A DNA stretch of 26,529 bases from assembly GCA_964587845.1 (NCBI GenBank), contig CAZPNG010000154.1, positions 1 to 26,529 of the forward strand, read 5' to 3'. This stretch comes from an uncultured bacterium (GTDB lineage Bacteria > Omnitrophota > Omnitrophia > Omnitrophales > CAZPNG01). This document shows, one piece after another, positions 4,615-22,439 of the stretch (within the stretch, counting starts at the first letter, position 1; the number at the start of each line of letters is the position of its first letter). Position numbers and translations under genes: made by a program. The notes beneath the pieces were generated by a model. The model searched no databases and had not been told where the DNA came from. It saw only the letters and a program-made list of their open reading frames with translations.

Positions 4615-4669
4615 AGGGCGTGGTGCCGGTGGACCTACCCCCGTGGCATCAGTTGTTCGTGAAAGCAGA

Positions 4670-5254
4670 CTAATCTTTCTTTGCCAGACCCAGGACTTCT
4701 AGGAATTCGTCCACATTCTTGGAGACACGAATCGTGTGTTTTATCTTGGCGGATTGCGGGATTTTATAAAGGTGAGCCGTAAAACCGAGTTTGGCGATCG
4801 CGGCCATAACGTCGGTTGCTAAACTTGGCAGCATCGTTACGAAATTTACCATCTTGTATGCCCTGTCGTAGTAAATAGAGCCGTCGGTTTCAATGAGCCC
4901 CTGGAGGCAAGGGATGATGAAGCGTTTATCGTTTTGAATCCAGCGAGGAACGGAAACTTGCTGGCGGTATTTCGGCCCCTTGTCTGCTTTCCATCCGAGC
5001 CACCTCTCCCATCGATTGGAATAACAGCTAATGTCGACACAATTTTTAGGACGGCGTACAAGACTTACTTTATTATGCGGCAGGAGAGTTTGAATCGCTC
5101 TACAGATGCGGCGGAGAATGCTCTTGTATTTAACGTCACACGTGATTCTCAGTCTGGTAGCTCCACGGTTAGGATTTGAAAGATTGCCGTCCCCGATCGC
5201 GGCACCTACCACATAGGCTAAGACTTTCCTATCTACATCATGCAGATGAGGCAT
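4670..5254 (-). CDS. Free-standing double-motif LAGLIDADG homing-endonuclease-like protein (~194 aa)
   Basis: Two LAGLIDADG helices, LAYVVGAAIGDGNL and CLQGLIETDGSI. The first ATG outside the tRNA-Leu gene is at 5254; the ORF-track extension to 5368 runs through the tRNA. Hand-counted GC is ~47-48% in two sample lines versus ~65% in a leuS line. Confidence 0.88.
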   Translation of the reverse strand: MPHLHDVDRKVLAYVVGAAIGDGNLSNPNRGATRLRITCDVKYKSILRRICRAIQTLLPHNKVSLVRRPKNCVDISCYSNRWERWLGWKADKGPKYRQQVSVPRWIQNDKRFIIPCLQGLIETDGSIYYDRAYKMVNFVTMLPSLATDVMAAIAKLGFTAHLYKIPQSAKIKHTIRVSKNVDEFLEVLGLAKKD

Positions 5255-5257
5255 TCG

Positions 5258-5340
5258 TGCCGCTGGTCGGAGTCGAACCGACATGAGCTCGCGCTCACAG
5301 GTTTTTGAGACCTGCATGTCTGCCATTCCATCACAGCGGC
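5258..5340 (-). tRNA. tRNA-Leu(CAA), CCA not encoded
   Basis: GCCGCTG/CAGCGGC acceptor stem plus discriminator A. Anticodon arm CAGGT-CTCAAAA-ACCTG. Long variable arm TGAGC-GCGA-GCTCA. T arm GTCGG-TTCGACT-CCGAC. The gene is followed by CGA rather than CCA. Confidence 0.95.
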
Positions 5341-5345
5341 ATAAC

Positions 5346-5444
5346 GTGTACCTGAGGGGATTTGACACCTGCGGCTCGCTCTGTCTTTCTGCGTCTCGCT
5401 GGCGCTCGACGCGGCCAGGCTTGCCCCAAGTCGGCCACAGGCCC
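5346..5444 (-). pseudogene. tRNA-Ala-derived remnant with an unrelated GC-rich hairpin interior
   Basis: The 5' end GGGCCTGT is identical to the adjacent tRNA-Ala 5' end. The 3' end CAGGTGTCAAATCCCCTCAGGTACAC resembles CAGGGGTTCGAATCCCCTCAGGTCCAC, with 13 identical nt (5350-5362 vs 5479-5491). There is no recognisable anticodon arm and no CCA. Confidence 0.6.
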
Positions 5445-5472
5445 GCTCAATTCGAGATCACATGCACCATCT

Positions 5473-5548
5473 TGGTGGACCTGAGGGGATTCGAACCCCT
5501 GACCCTCAGCATGCCATGCTGATGCTCTGCCGGCTGAGCTACAGGCCC
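5473..5548 (-). tRNA. tRNA-Ala(GGC)
   Basis: 76 nt. GGGCCTG/CAGGTCC acceptor with the G3:U70 alanine identity pair. Anticodon arm TCAGC-ATGGCAT-GCTGA with A32/U38 as in known Ala(GGC) tRNAs. T arm AGGGG-TTCGAAT-CCCCT. ACCA end is encoded. Confidence 0.96.
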
Positions 5549-5595
5549 GTGTAAGCTTATTTAGAAGACCCCTCGTGTCTGACTGATCACTCGGG

Positions 5596-5656
5596 GTATA
5601 AATTCGCGCGGTGACTTACGTCTGCTGAGTTCCGTAAGTCACGCGCTCATTTATAC
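5596..5656. repeat. Long imperfect inverted repeat in the tRNA/leuS divergent intergenic region
   Basis: GTATAAAT..GCGCG-GTGACTTACG (5596-5620), 12-nt loop, CGTAAGTCAC-GCGC..ATTTATAC (5633-5656). The inner 10 bp pair perfectly. Confidence 0.75.
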
Positions 5657-5678
5657 TTACATTTTTTTGCCTTGTCAA
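5650..5678 (-). promoter_or_regulatory. sigma70 promoter for the tRNA-Ala / tRNA-Leu / endonuclease transcript
   Basis: Minus strand TTGACA (5678-5673), 17-nt spacer, TATAAA (5655-5650). Confidence 0.7.
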
Positions 5679-11790: not shown

Positions 11791-14274
11791 GTGTCGCGGC
11801 GTTTTCCATTTCTTCATTTTTTCCTCTTCCTGACGGCGGGAATCCTCATCCAGCCCGTTGCTTTCCGGTCCTGGCCGGGTGTTGGAATCTGTGCGGCCGG
11901 GGCCGGGCTTTGCGCAACGGCCGTCCTGGCCTGCGAGCTGCTACCCGGTCTTCTCAAGGTGAGAGCGAACGCGTGGTGGCGCGCCCGCGGGTTCGCGGCC
12001 CTTTTGGGTTTTGCGATTTTTTTCTCCGGGGTCGTTTCGAGCTACTGCTTTTTTTCCGAGACGGCGGGCTGCGCGCTATCAGTCGGTCCCGCCGAGATCG
12101 AGGGCGACATTGCGGGGCCGGTGGAGGTCGTTCGCCGCGGCCGGCAGCGCCGTGTCGCCTTTGAGCTGGAAACGCTTGCCGGGGGGCCGGCGCCCCCACC
12201 TCCGGTCTCTCGACCTTCGGGGACTTGCCAGCCGACCCGCTTTCAGCGGGTGCCCCGGCTGCCGGCGCGAGCGCGCGTGCAATGCTTTCTCGTCAACCCA
12301 CCGGGGTCTCTGCGCTCCGCGGACCGCGTTCGCCTGGCCGGGCGCCTGGAGGATCCGCCCGGCGCGCGCAATCCGGGCGAGTTTGATTACGCGGCGTTCC
12401 TGCGCTCGCAAGGAATTCGATATGTGTTCCGGGGAGTCGGGACCCGGAGCGTGCTGGGAGGGGTGCGCCGCCGGCCGGCCTCGCTCGCCGCCTGGTTTTA
12501 CCGAATGCGGGGAATGCTCTCCACCCGTCTGGCGCGCGCCATGCGCCCTCCGGAGGGGGACCTGGTAGCCGCCCTCTGCCTCGGCGAGCGGCGCGGCCTG
12601 TCACCGGAACTCACGGCCGATTTCGTGCGCACGGGCCTCGTGCACGTGATCGCCGTGAGCGGTTTCAACGTGTGGCTCCTCGCCGGCGGCCTATGGGGCG
12701 CGCTCAAGCTTTGCGCCGTCCCGCCCCGCATGGCCGTGGCGGCCTGCCTGGCCACGGTGGGCGGATACGTGTTTTTGTCCGGCGCGCCCGTGACCGTGGT
12801 GCGGGCGGCGTGGATGGCCGCCGGCGCGTTTCTCGCGGTTCTCCTGCGGGAGCCGGCCGCGTCGCTCAATTTCCTGTTTTTTGCAAGCTTTCTCATTTTG
12901 TTCGCCGACCCCGGCGCCCTGGCCTTGCCGTCGTTTCAACTTTCCTTTGCCTCTTCGCTCGCGCTGCTCACGCTGGCGCCCCGTCTAGACATGGGCTCCG
13001 GCAGCGGACGGCCGCGAAGCCGCAAGCGCGCGGCGAGAAGCTGGAGAGCCGCGCGCTGGCTCGCCCGGCAAGTTTTCTCCTCCCTCAGTGTGAGCGCAGC
13101 CGTCTTGATCGGCGCGGGGCCCGTGAGCGCCTGGCACTTCCATGCGCTCTCGCTCGTGTCCGTTTTGGCCAACCTCCTCGTGCTGCCGTTGTTTGTGCTG
13201 GCCATGTGGTGCGCGCTGCCCGGCCTTGTGAGTTTGGTGGCCTGGCCGCCGGCGGCATCCGTGTTTCTCGAGGGCGCCCGGGTGCTTCTCGGCGGCGCTG
13301 TGGCGTTGAACGGTTATCTGGCACGGCTGCCCGGGTTCTTTCCGGTGCCGAAGGCCGCGTGGGGGTGGCTGGCGCTCGGATGCGCTTTCCTCGGGGCCTA
13401 TGCTCTGGCGGGCCGGGCGGGGGCCCTCCGGGCCCTTTGGCCCGTAGGGCCGGGGGCAGGCAGGATTTCCCGGCTGCCTCGCCCTGCCTATCTCGCCGGG
13501 GCGGCGCTCGCCGTACTCGGGGGGCTTGTTTTCTCGGCCGCCGCTCGCGAGCAACCCTTCTCGTTCACGGTCCTCGCTGCGCGGCAAGGATTTGTCGCCC
13601 TGGCTCGCATGCCGGGCCGGGCCCCCGTGTTGTTCAACACGGGCGGCGGCCGGTCGGGCCGCGGCGTCTTTTGGCTCACGCTTCCCTATTTGCGCTCCCA
13701 GGGCGTTCGGCGCTTGAGCGGCTTGGTCTTGCATTCCCTTTCTGCCGCCGACGCGGGCGGCCTTGCGGTGCTGGGCCGGCAGGTAGAGGTGGGTAGGGTC
13801 TTCGTGCCTGCGAAGGACGCAAAACGCGCGGCCGCCGTGGACCCTTCCGTCGGACGGAGGATGAGCGTTTATCGCCTCCGCGAGTCGCTGCAGCTTGAAC
13901 CCGGGACAGGAGTCGCGCAGCGCGTAGCGCCTTTTGCATGGATGTTCTCCGGCCGGTCCGTCAGGATCGCTGTGCTCATGTCTGCTCGAGCTTCCGGCGC
14001 CCTCGGCCTGCGAAATCAAGGGGGCTGTTTCGATGCGGTCGTCTTGGCTGCCGGCTCAAGCGGCGAACGCAAGGGTCCGTGGGCGTCCTACGCGAAGCGG
14101 TGCCCCGAAACGGTCATGGTCACCGCCGACAAGAAGGGGGATGGCGGCTTTCTTCGAGGGCTCGGGTTAAGGAGTTTCGCGACATCGGCGTGCGGTATGG
14201 TTCGGCTCATCGAGTCGCCGGCCGGGCAGGTTGCGGTCGAAACCTTTCTCCCCTGTTCCTCGCTGCACGTTTGA
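11791..14274 (+). CDS. comEC: ComEC/Rec2 DNA-uptake membrane protein with a degenerate beta-lactamase-fold C-terminus and a 25-aa insert
   Basis: SD AGGAGG before GTG. N-terminal TMs, OB-fold region (LAGRLEDPPGARNPGEFDYAAFLRSQGI), competence domain (ALCLGER..TGLVHVIAVSGFNV..VVRAAWM..PSFQLSF) and a C-terminal MBL-like region. Confidence 0.9.
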   Translation: MSRRFPFLHFFLFLTAGILIQPVAFRSWPGVGICAAGAGLCATAVLACELLPGLLKVRANAWWRARGFAALLGFAIFFSGVVSSYCFFSETAGCALSVGPAEIEGDIAGPVEVVRRGRQRRVAFELETLAGGPAPPPPVSRPSGTCQPTRFQRVPRLPARARVQCFLVNPPGSLRSADRVRLAGRLEDPPGARNPGEFDYAAFLRSQGIRYVFRGVGTRSVLGGVRRRPASLAAWFYRMRGMLSTRLARAMRPPEGDLVAALCLGERRGLSPELTADFVRTGLVHVIAVSGFNVWLLAGGLWGALKLCAVPPRMAVAACLATVGGYVFLSGAPVTVVRAAWMAAGAFLAVLLREPAASLNFLFFASFLILFADPGALALPSFQLSFASSLALLTLAPRLDMGSGSGRPRSRKRAARSWRAARWLARQVFSSLSVSAAVLIGAGPVSAWHFHALSLVSVLANLLVLPLFVLAMWCALPGLVSLVAWPPAASVFLEGARVLLGGAVALNGYLARLPGFFPVPKAAWGWLALGCAFLGAYALAGRAGALRALWPVGPGAGRISRLPRPAYLAGAALAVLGGLVFSAAAREQPFSFTVLAARQGFVALARMPGRAPVLFNTGGGRSGRGVFWLTLPYLRSQGVRRLSGLVLHSLSAADAGGLAVLGRQVEVGRVFVPAKDAKRAAAVDPSVGRRMSVYRLRESLQLEPGTGVAQRVAPFAWMFSGRSVRIAVLMSARASGALGLRNQGGCFDAVVLAAGSSGERKGPWASYAKRCPETVMVTADKKGDGGFLRGLGLRSFATSACGMVRLIESPAGQVAVETFLPCSSLHV
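12188..12268 (-). mobile_element. 75-bp palindromic element plus 6-bp direct repeat, in-frame within comEC (copy 1)
   Basis: CGGCGC at 12188-12193 and 12263-12268, exactly 75 nt apart. 12188-12269 is the reverse complement of 21265-21346 at 81/82 positions. It encodes [23 protein letters not shown] within ComEC. Confidence 0.85.
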
Positions 14275-20925: not shown

Positions 20926-22439
20926 AGGACCTAAAGGAAACCGTGCGCGCTCTGCCCCACCGGCCGGGCGTTTACCTGTTCAAAGACAAGGATGCGGGGG
21001 TGCTGTACATCGGCAAGGCCGCGGACCTGCGCAAGCGCGTGGCTTCCTATCTGACCCAGCGTTGGAATAGCCCCAAGCTCGAGGCCATGACGGGCAAGAT
21101 TGCCTCCGTGGATTGCGTGGAGACGCCGACCGAGGTGGAGGCGCTGCTGCTCGAAGCGCACCTCGTCAAAGAGCTCGAGCCCCGATACAACACGATGCTG
21201 CGGGACGACAAGAGCTACCCGCTCTTGAAGATCTCCGGCGAGCGGTTTCCGCGCCTCTCGCTTGCGCGCCGGCAGCCGGGGCACCCGCTGAAAGCGGGTC
21301 GGCTGGCAAGTCCCCGAAGGTCGACAGACCGGAGGTGGGGGCGCCGCGGGCAAGACCGGCGCGCCTCTTACTACGGCCCCTTTACGGACGCCAAACTCTT
21401 GCGGGAGGCGATCCGCATCATCAACACGATCTTCCCGCTGCGCAAGTGCCAACCGCTCCCCAAGCGGGAGTGCCTGTATTATCATCTGCACCAGTGCCTG
21501 GCTCCCTGCATCAAGCCCGACGTGAAGCCAGAGTACGACCGCGTGGTCGGAGAGGTGAAGCGCTTTTTGGCGGGCGGCAAGAAAAGCTTGATCGAGTACC
21601 TCACGGAGCGCATGGAGGAGGCGGCCGGGGAGCTTCGCTTTGAAGACGCTCAGATGTTTAAAGAGCAGCTTGACGCGCTCTCGCGCCTGCGCCGCCGCCG
21701 GTTCCATCCCGCACAGCCCCCCGGCCGTGCGGTGGCGCTCTCAGCCACCCAGGAGTTGAAGTCCGTCTTTCGGCTCAAACGGCTTCCCGAGCGCATCGTC
21801 TGCTTCGACGTGTCCAACGTGCAGGGCGCTTACGCGACCGCCTCGCGCGTGAGCTTTTACCGCGAGCTGCCCGACAAGAACGAGTACCGCCGCTACCGCA
21901 TCCGCACGGTGCGGGGCATCGACGACTACGCCATGATCCGCGAAGTCGTGACGCGCATGATCTGCGGCCTGCGGGAAGGGCGGGAAGCGTTTGATCCCGA
22001 TCTCCTGCTGATCGACGGGGGCAGGGGGCACTTGTCCTCGGCCCTGCGGGCCATGAAGGCGGAGGGCTACGAGGGCCCTCTCGTGGTGGCCATTGCGAAA
22101 CGCTTCGAGCACCTGTACACTTCTCACTCACCGGGGCCGGTCGTGCTGGAGCGGGATTCCTCGGCCCTTCGGCTGCTCATCCGCGTGAGGGACGAGGCGC
22201 ACCGTTTCGCGGTCAGCTACCATCGCTTGTTGCGCTCCAAGGGCTTGCAGGCGTCACTCCTGGACCACATTCCGGGCGTGGGCGAGGAACGCAAGCGGCA
22301 ACTTTTGCGCGCGTTCGGGTCCGTGGAGGCGATTCGCGACGCCGAACCGGCCGTGCTGGCGAGACTGCACGGCATGAATGCGGCGATCGCGCACCGGGTC
22401 AGTTCCTATCTCGCGCGGGCATCGGGAAGTGCGGCGTAA
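20922..22439 (+). CDS. uvrC: Excinuclease ABC subunit C (505 aa, including a 25-aa insert)
   Basis: GTGA overlap with the murJ stop. GIY-YIG domain [40 protein letters not shown], Cys cluster [16 protein letters not shown] motif, RNase H-like [26 protein letters not shown] and HhH IPGVG. Confidence 0.96.
21266..21346 (+). mobile_element. 75-bp palindromic element plus 6-bp direct repeat, in-frame within uvrC (copy 2)
   Basis: GCGCCG at 21266-21271 and 21341-21346, 75 nt apart. Internal hairpins CAGCCG..ACCCGC-TGAAA-GCGGGT-CGGCTG and GGTC-GACA-GACC. It encodes [25 protein letters not shown]. Confidence 0.85.

Follow-up and report, generated by a model that had tools for sequence, protein, structure and literature searches.

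A probable degenerate copy of a gene-less, tRNA-trailing element family between the tRNA-Ala and tRNA-Leu genes of an uncultured Omnitrophota bacterium

Tyrosine integrases of the T-loop sublocation class reportedly leave a direct repeat of the tRNA 3' segment. Integron attC cassettes and CTX-phage-type sites are recombination sites that fold as single strands, and the omega-RNA of TnpB is a guide RNA that carries its guide at the 3' end. Together with MITE/REP-like repeats and tRNA pseudogenes, these are the described systems with which we compare a short spacer between two tRNA genes.

The spacer lies in the window, by which we mean the whole stretch of 26,529 nucleotides that was analyzed. 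Its source is an Omnitrophota MAG (G000) that is 88% complete and is the sole representative of its family. A tRNA-Ala(GGC) and a tRNA-Leu(CAA) gene are separated here by 132 nt, and this spacer holds a 99-nt piece on the same strand (5346-5444, (-)). A preliminary description of the DNA took the piece for a tRNA-Ala duplicate with a replaced interior, or for a tRNA-mimic RNA. Our analyses indicate that it is, with high probability, a degenerate and probably dead copy of a family of gene-less elements that trail tRNA genes in Omnitrophota. It is very probably not a decayed tRNA duplicate.

A structured element behind tRNA genes of Omnitrophota

The lead came from a scan in which each tRNA, in the genome and in the fetched loci alike, was checked for additional copies of its ends. 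For several of them, an exact direct repeat of the last 16-17 bases turned up ~130-200 nt downstream. The repeats delimit a family of gene-less structured elements that trail tRNA genes in Omnitrophota. The elements are 100-220 nt long and carry no gene, and intact members have the same order throughout: a variable trailer, a left arm, an invariant junction octamer, P2, a 12-nt core, P3, a hexamer and a right arm. The left arm is the reverse complement of tRNA positions 54-63, that is, antisense to the T-loop and T-stem, and the right arm of intact members is an exact copy of the neighboring tRNA from purine 57 to the 3' end. Pairing between these two arms (P1) closes a three-way junction, while the invariant core and the invariant hexamer (GGCGCC) pair as helix P4, inside which lies the variable P3.

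We searched 401 sampled genomes of the phylum with a strict pattern that joins the two most conserved motifs, using the reversed pattern as a control. The search gave 149 matches in 59 of the 401 genomes, with up to 11 per genome, and the reversed control gave none. Among the fetched loci, a same-strand tRNA was found upstream of 49 of the 54 pattern matches, most of which lay 12-230 nt behind the tRNA gene, and the tRNAs belonged to 13 isotypes. At these loci the reverse-complement match of the left arm was mostly 8-13 nt long and the right arm was mostly identical to the tRNA tail at 15-17 of 17 positions, its start always being position 57, directly after the invariant hexamer. Another 18 pattern matches were found on viral contigs; none was near a tRNA and their P2 pairing was at chance level, and we take them as chance matches. 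When eight element-bearing loci were searched against Rfam 15 at E <= 1, only tRNAs were returned, and full-text searches of the paper literature found nothing relevant to the family and no public description of it. The family fits no RNA family or mobile-element class with which it was compared.

The fold was examined in an alignment of 33 members, with shuffled sequences and slid pairing partners as controls. Cells assigned to helices were paired in 97.2% of cases, as opposed to 78% in the shuffles and 41-49% when the partners were slid. Double changes were observed in 120 cells, with 32 expected, and none of 500 shuffles reached 120. The junction triplet GGG was invariant in all 33 members. 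The tRNA-sense strand is the folded one, since the G-U pairs of the family fall on this strand and P3 often ends in a GNRA-like loop. The tandem G-A motifs that are also present, together with these loops, make it most likely that the fold acts as RNA and not as single-stranded DNA.

Three intact copies, ~168 nt each, were found in the source genome behind tRNA-Gly(TCC), tRNA-Asp(GTC) and tRNA-Gly(CCC) (Table 1). Their interiors are very similar by eye in the alignment and their ends differ, each following its own tRNA. The genes around them are housekeeping genes, and there is no recombinase in or beside the copies. On contig C96, and also in genome G353, the unit is followed by an extra copy of tail, trailer and left arm that ends right at the point where the core would start; on C96 this 47-nt repeat is followed by a small HTH_17 gene.

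Two further tRNA genes of the source genome are accompanied by copies of their own parts. Behind the tRNA-Ala(CGC) gene on contig C87 (C87:5960-6162(-), L154), at a distance of 13 nt, its 3' end recurs as a perfect 15-nt inverted repeat, and a degenerate copy of its tail lies ~100 nt beyond that. The family core motifs are absent from this structure, which may be a different or a decayed element. The tRNA-Gln(CTG) gene on contig C168 (C168:3987-4400(+), L153) has an exact copy of its own first 10 bases 89 nt upstream, and ~215 nt downstream of it, after two hairpins, there is a left-arm-like reverse complement of the T arm and then the junction octamer.

The spacer between tRNA-Ala and tRNA-Leu

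Judged by comparison with related genomes, the tandem of tRNA-Ala and tRNA-Leu genes was already present in the ancestor of the order, and it is conserved there. In most same-order relatives the spacer is 2-53 nt long, and the longer spacers there consist of unrelated DNA. On contig C46 of G003 (L010:1032-1504) the spacer lacks the element and is made up of AT-rich DNA, 473 nt long, in which there is a small ORF; the Ala-Leu spacer seems to be an insertion hot spot. Contigs break exactly at tRNA-Leu or at the endonuclease gene in three relatives (G003 C45/C46, G035 C28 and G159 C45).

The LAGLIDADG endonuclease gene that follows tRNA-Leu (Table 1) showed no tie to the element: its homologues occur in 41 of the 401 genomes and are present in only 5 of the 59 element-positive ones, as chance would predict. 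Past this gene, at 4621-4636, a short stretch resembles the ends of tRNA-Ala (9 nt) and those of tRNA-Leu with CCA, while the tRNA-Leu gene itself is without CCA. On the other side of the tandem, a 61-nt inverted repeat (5587-5658) lies over a putative tRNA promoter recognized by eye (TTGACA, 17 nt, TATAAA). A promoter scan upstream of tRNA-Ala did not call this pair because its rule requires a T at the last position. Matches to the inverted repeat, 73-86% identical, were found at ~10 other places in same-order genomes, one of them directly upstream of tRNA-Ser(GGA) in G015 (L024), and the repeat has a weak match to Rfam P31 (E=0.013).

The placement of the spacer in the element family rests on alignment and on a covariance model built from the 33 members, the E-values of which are rough owing to a short calibration. 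The best match of this model in the window was 5347-5504(-), with a modest 17.5 bits and E=8e-4, and the next had E=0.35. Genome-wide, the window copy ranked fourth after the three intact copies (E=0.07) and no other tRNA locus scored; a sequence-only profile of the three intact copies misses the window copy. A single 3-nt gap suffices to align the whole piece collinearly with the 3' domain of the intact copies. The piece matches them at 16 of 20 positions over the P2 3' strand and core motif and at 51% across the core as a whole (shuffle z 3.1-4.3). The element thus placed, at 5346-5448, is matched to the tRNA-Ala(GGC) gene in front of it, and its recognizable part begins 24 nt past the CCA of that gene on the same strand. 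The unit is therefore longer than the 99 nt first assigned to it: family homology begins no later than 5448, and what may be remnants extend up to the tRNA CCA.

Table 1. Features of the tRNA-Ala/tRNA-Leu locus in the window, and intact elements elsewhere in the source genome
Feature	Position	Strand	Basis or remark
LAGLIDADG endonuclease gene, start 3 nt after tRNA-Leu	4670..5254	(-)	Pfam
tRNA-Leu(CAA), 5 nt downstream of element	5257..5340	(-)	ARAGORN
Right arm, sense copy of tRNA-Ala 57-74, 16/18 identical	5346..5363	(-)	Directly after hexamer, as in all members
P4 3' strand; GGCGCC to GGTGTC, two C-to-T changes, both wobble-pairing	5364..5369	(-)	Alignment
P3 domain	5370..5428	(-)	Alignment
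P4 5' strand (family core motif)	5429..5437	(-)	Alignment and 33-member structure
Apparent "acceptor 5' strand": last four P2 3'-strand bases and junction triplet (GGG to CTG)	5438..5444	(-)	Alignment
P2 3' strand, 8/8 identical to C165 and C294 copies	5441..5448	(-)	Alignment
Spacer after tRNA-Ala; possible scrambled remnants of trailer, left arm and apical P2	5449..5472	(-)	Alignments disagree
tRNA-Ala(GGC), intact, CCA encoded	5473..5548	(-)	ARAGORN; Rfam tRNA 66.4 bits
Intact element behind tRNA-Gly(TCC)	C96:1989-2157	(-)	Locus L150
Intact element behind tRNA-Asp(GTC)	C165:591-758	(-)	Locus L151
Intact element behind tRNA-Gly(CCC)	C294:46-214	(-)	Locus L152

Within the window copy, 10 of the 12 core-motif bases are present. 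When the sequence is read against the family structure, all seven P4 pairs are possible with 5363-5369, three of them as G-U/U-G wobbles. Both hairpins named in the preliminary description (CTTG-GGG-CAAG and GCGTC..GACGC) are indeed present; the apical hairpin of P3, with stems at 5408-5412 and 5391-5395, is a hairpin that had been seen there, and about three-quarters of its 12-nt loop (5396-5407) agrees with the loops of the intact copies, while the stem sequence differs. From the core motif to the right arm there are 77 nt in the window copy versus 74-75 in the intact copies. The junction octamer, the P2 5' strand and apex and a recognizable left arm are absent; the only left-arm-like trace is a TCGAA pentamer at 5451-5455, in a stretch that three alignments place differently. 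We regard the copy as damaged because the octamer and the P2 5' strand are missing, and these losses, together with the mutated family invariants, bear out the earlier view that the piece is decayed.

The piece had been said to copy both ends of tRNA-Ala. This stood for the 3' end, which is tRNA-derived: it is identical to tRNA-Ala positions 55-74 at 18 of 20 positions, including an exact 13-mer, far above chance. It did not stand for the 5' end, which is family core with two substitutions. The first eight bases of the piece are all identical to the tRNA-Ala 5' end, as are 10 of the first 11. The homologous eight bases in the intact copies (P2 3' end, junction triplet and first P4 base) already match it at 6 of 8, and two window-copy substitutions in the otherwise invariant triplet complete the match. 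The tRNA-like 5' end thus arises because the P2 sequence of this genome and the two triplet substitutions together spell tRNA bases, and we consider the 8/8 match a coincidence with a chance, by our own estimate, of ~1 in 10 given two substitutions there. The expectation that an att-type event duplicates only one end agrees with this outcome, as only the tRNA 3' end is truly copied.

The alternative that survives best, although we consider it very unlikely, is that a tandem duplicate of tRNA-Ala(GGC) has decayed and taken up an insertion in its D region. It would account for the two end matches (8/8 and 18/20) in the right order and at about the right distance, and for the fact that the piece occupies the place of tRNA-Ala in relatives with short Ala-Leu spacers. 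It could also draw on a 3'-anchored ungapped stretch in which the piece is identical to tRNA positions 22-53 at 18 of 32 positions, at a p of ~5e-4 that is uncorrected for the 8-9 windows tried; this identity may reflect the purine-rich composition of both sequences. Against it, ARAGORN made no tRNA call on the piece at default settings, with -ps80 (80% thresholds) or with introns allowed, and the Rfam tRNA model had no match at E<=10. All four of the tRNA stems are broken by non-compensatory changes, the fold of the piece is no more stable than shuffles (z -0.76) and gapped similarity between its interior and that of tRNA-Ala is at chance (z 0.4-0.7). The interior that had been described as replaced aligns significantly and collinearly with the element family instead, the tRNA-identical part starts exactly at the family boundary, position 57 after the hexamer, and most of the 5' 8-mer (6/8) is already found in the family core of this genome.

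The suggestion that a palindromic repeat had invaded the piece was not sustained either. In BLAST searches of the genome the interior gave only chance 13-20-mers and no other copy, whereas the same search recovered the ~20 copies of an 82-nt palindromic mini-element, with which the piece shares nothing beyond 6-mers. This mini-element is present in the window at 12188-12269 and 21265-21346, and its ~20 further copies in the assembly are 86-99% identical, several of them lying at contig ends.

Other searches centered on the spacer gave little. The interior of the piece had no match in phage records, the element part of the window had none in 40 same-order genomes, and none of 80 LeuRS-anchored metagenome loci (identity <=69%) carried the element. 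When the species genome collection was screened with a gapped pattern of the piece's ends, the sole match was an archaeal tRNA with an intron, and the 127-nt interval between the repeats contains no ORF. A two-piece or permuted tmRNA was considered and rejected: the match reached 30.2 bits versus an Rfam threshold of 47 and covers only the T-arm, CCA and next 5' strand. The standard tmRNA of the source genome is on contig C72.

Origin of the window copy and behavior of the family

Related genomes differ in the elements that they carry at the same tRNA gene. Within one genus, tRNA-His is followed by two tandem units in G069, one unit in G178, a decayed one in G135 and a relic in G194, and the site is empty in six genomes; the flank behind the G069 array matches the sequence that comes immediately after the tRNA in G140. 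At several tRNAs the units form tandem arrays of two or three. At the Ala-Leu pair, three tandem units follow tRNA-Leu(CAA) in G005; in G353, tRNA-Ala(GGC) and tRNA-Leu(CAA) are separated by one unit, the layout seen in the window, and a further unit follows tRNA-Leu. Trailer and core similarity are discordant between species, at 85% versus 65% in one pair and 70% versus 80% in another.

Because of the presence/absence differences, the tandem arrays and the relics, we favor, as the somewhat more probable reading, that the family is an insertion element that lands at the universal T-loop and preserves the tRNA by supplying or duplicating its tail, rather than a resident RNA gene family. The landing site would be the T-loop junction C56|R57. 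Insertion there would leave the tRNA complete, with a spare copy of its tail on the far side of the element, and this spare tail would explain the copied 3' end of tRNA-Ala. The copy behind tRNA-Ala would subsequently have lost its octamer, the 5' half of P2 and a recognizable left arm, and would have mutated the invariant junction triplet as well. It would now be inactive and discarded as spacer RNA once RNase P and 3' processing have freed the two flanking tRNAs.

A more speculative extension, toward which we are inclined to be skeptical, is a self-propagating, protein-less element. Its folded RNA, clamped by the antisense and sense T-arm copies, would direct its own insertion at C56|R57 of any tRNA gene by way of a hypothetical enzyme and would regenerate the tail, and the window copy would be a fossil of this process.

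The candidates considered as partners yielded no gene that accompanies the family. Large serine recombinases were evaluated as a partner and rejected, as they occur in 248 of the 401 genomes but are absent from the source genome, from G069, which has 9 copies of the element, and from G005. No TnpB-type domain was found in the source genome. At L214 (G202), and also at L217, L222 and L224, a left-arm-like 11-mer lies ~60 nt after tRNA-His and abuts a convergent large serine recombinase gene, the frame of which extends into the tRNA-His 3' end. In G140 (L219) a tyrosine integrase is found at the same tRNA-His. On contig C8 of G069 (L189:500-3330), the second and a third tRNA-His-matched unit are separated by a 2.8-kb segment that encodes a histidine kinase and a response regulator, as if it were cargo captured between units.

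An integrase-borne island could have inserted at the tRNA-Ala T-loop and later lost nearly all of its DNA, leaving an attL/attR-type scar. T-loop-class integrases reportedly leave just such a repeat of the tRNA tail, starting in the T-loop, and integrase and large-serine-recombinase genes do occur at some tRNA-His sites of relatives. Yet the remnant in the window shares its conserved, covarying fold with more than 140 other copies and is not random leftover DNA, and neither the recombinase-free surroundings of the intact copies nor the distribution of large serine recombinases described above fits such an origin. We therefore judge it improbable, a shade more so than a tRNA duplicate.

Least probable of all is a functional tRNA-Ala minihelix mimic, in which 5438-5444 would pair with 5347-5353 as a substrate of RNase P, RNase Z or AlaRS: six of seven acceptor-like pairs with the G3:U70 pair and discriminator A are there, the minimum-free-energy fold uses five of these pairs and P4 is kept through wobbles, as would suit an RNA under some constraint, but the G2/A71 mismatch and the damaged T arm, both as previously described, the mismatch in the T-stem and the 6-nt T-loop without T54, the lack of CCA, a fold stability at chance, a sequence unique to this genome and mutated family invariants, as decay predicts, all speak against it. 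The idea of a tRNA-mimic RNA was nonetheless close in spirit to the element family, even though the piece itself is not a tRNA mimic.

For the locus, the reading of the piece as a degenerate element copy means that neither a second tRNA-Ala nor a tRNA mimic with a replaced interior is present, and that what lies there is probably only the fossil of an insertion. The family itself has many copies and no gene, and its strongly covarying fold adapts both arms to the preceding tRNA. If it is mobile, how a gene-less element re-programs two arms for each new tRNA target while the tRNA is kept intact becomes a testable question. If it is an RNA gene, it would represent a new mimic of tRNA ends that the ultra-small bacteria of this phylum carry in up to 11 copies per genome. 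For annotation, the copies yield pseudo-tRNA signals, duplicated tRNA tails and breaks in MAG contigs, and deserve to be labeled as such.

Comparison with known systems

The att duplications left by integrases, and CIMEs, resemble the family in the repeat of the tRNA 3' segment from the T-loop on, the intact tRNA, tandem accretion and presence/absence between relatives. Unlike them, the family is only 100-220 nt long and gene-less, forms a covarying three-way junction and has an extra antisense T-arm; moreover, the same family core is found behind many isotypes in one genome, without a co-occurring recombinase. A tRNA pseudogene would share with the window copy a tRNA-derived 3' end beside the parent gene, but only positions 57-74 are tRNA-derived here and the remainder is element core.

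MITE/REP-like repeats, of which the 82-nt palindromic element is an example, are likewise small, protein-less and multi-copy, with intact beside decayed copies. The family differs from these in that it is found strictly at tRNA ends, its arms vary with the neighboring tRNA and it has no fixed terminal inverted repeats. Integron attC and CTX-phage sites are similar to it in having structure conserved more than sequence and in being strand-specific, and the discordance between trailer and core is cassette-like. In contrast to those sites, the family has no attI/IntI context and carries RNA-type motifs, and its target is the tRNA T-loop.

The omega-RNA of TnpB is comparable in that a scaffold of ~100-130 nt is followed by ~17-20 nt identical to the flanking target DNA, and in that the target is preceded by a fixed motif, which in the family would be TTC of the T-loop. 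The differences are that this genome has no TnpB-type gene, that the family has a 5' antisense arm and tandem arrays and that its scaffold is not part of a transposon end. By this comparison, each of the systems considered shares one or two traits with the tRNA-trailing elements and none has their combination.
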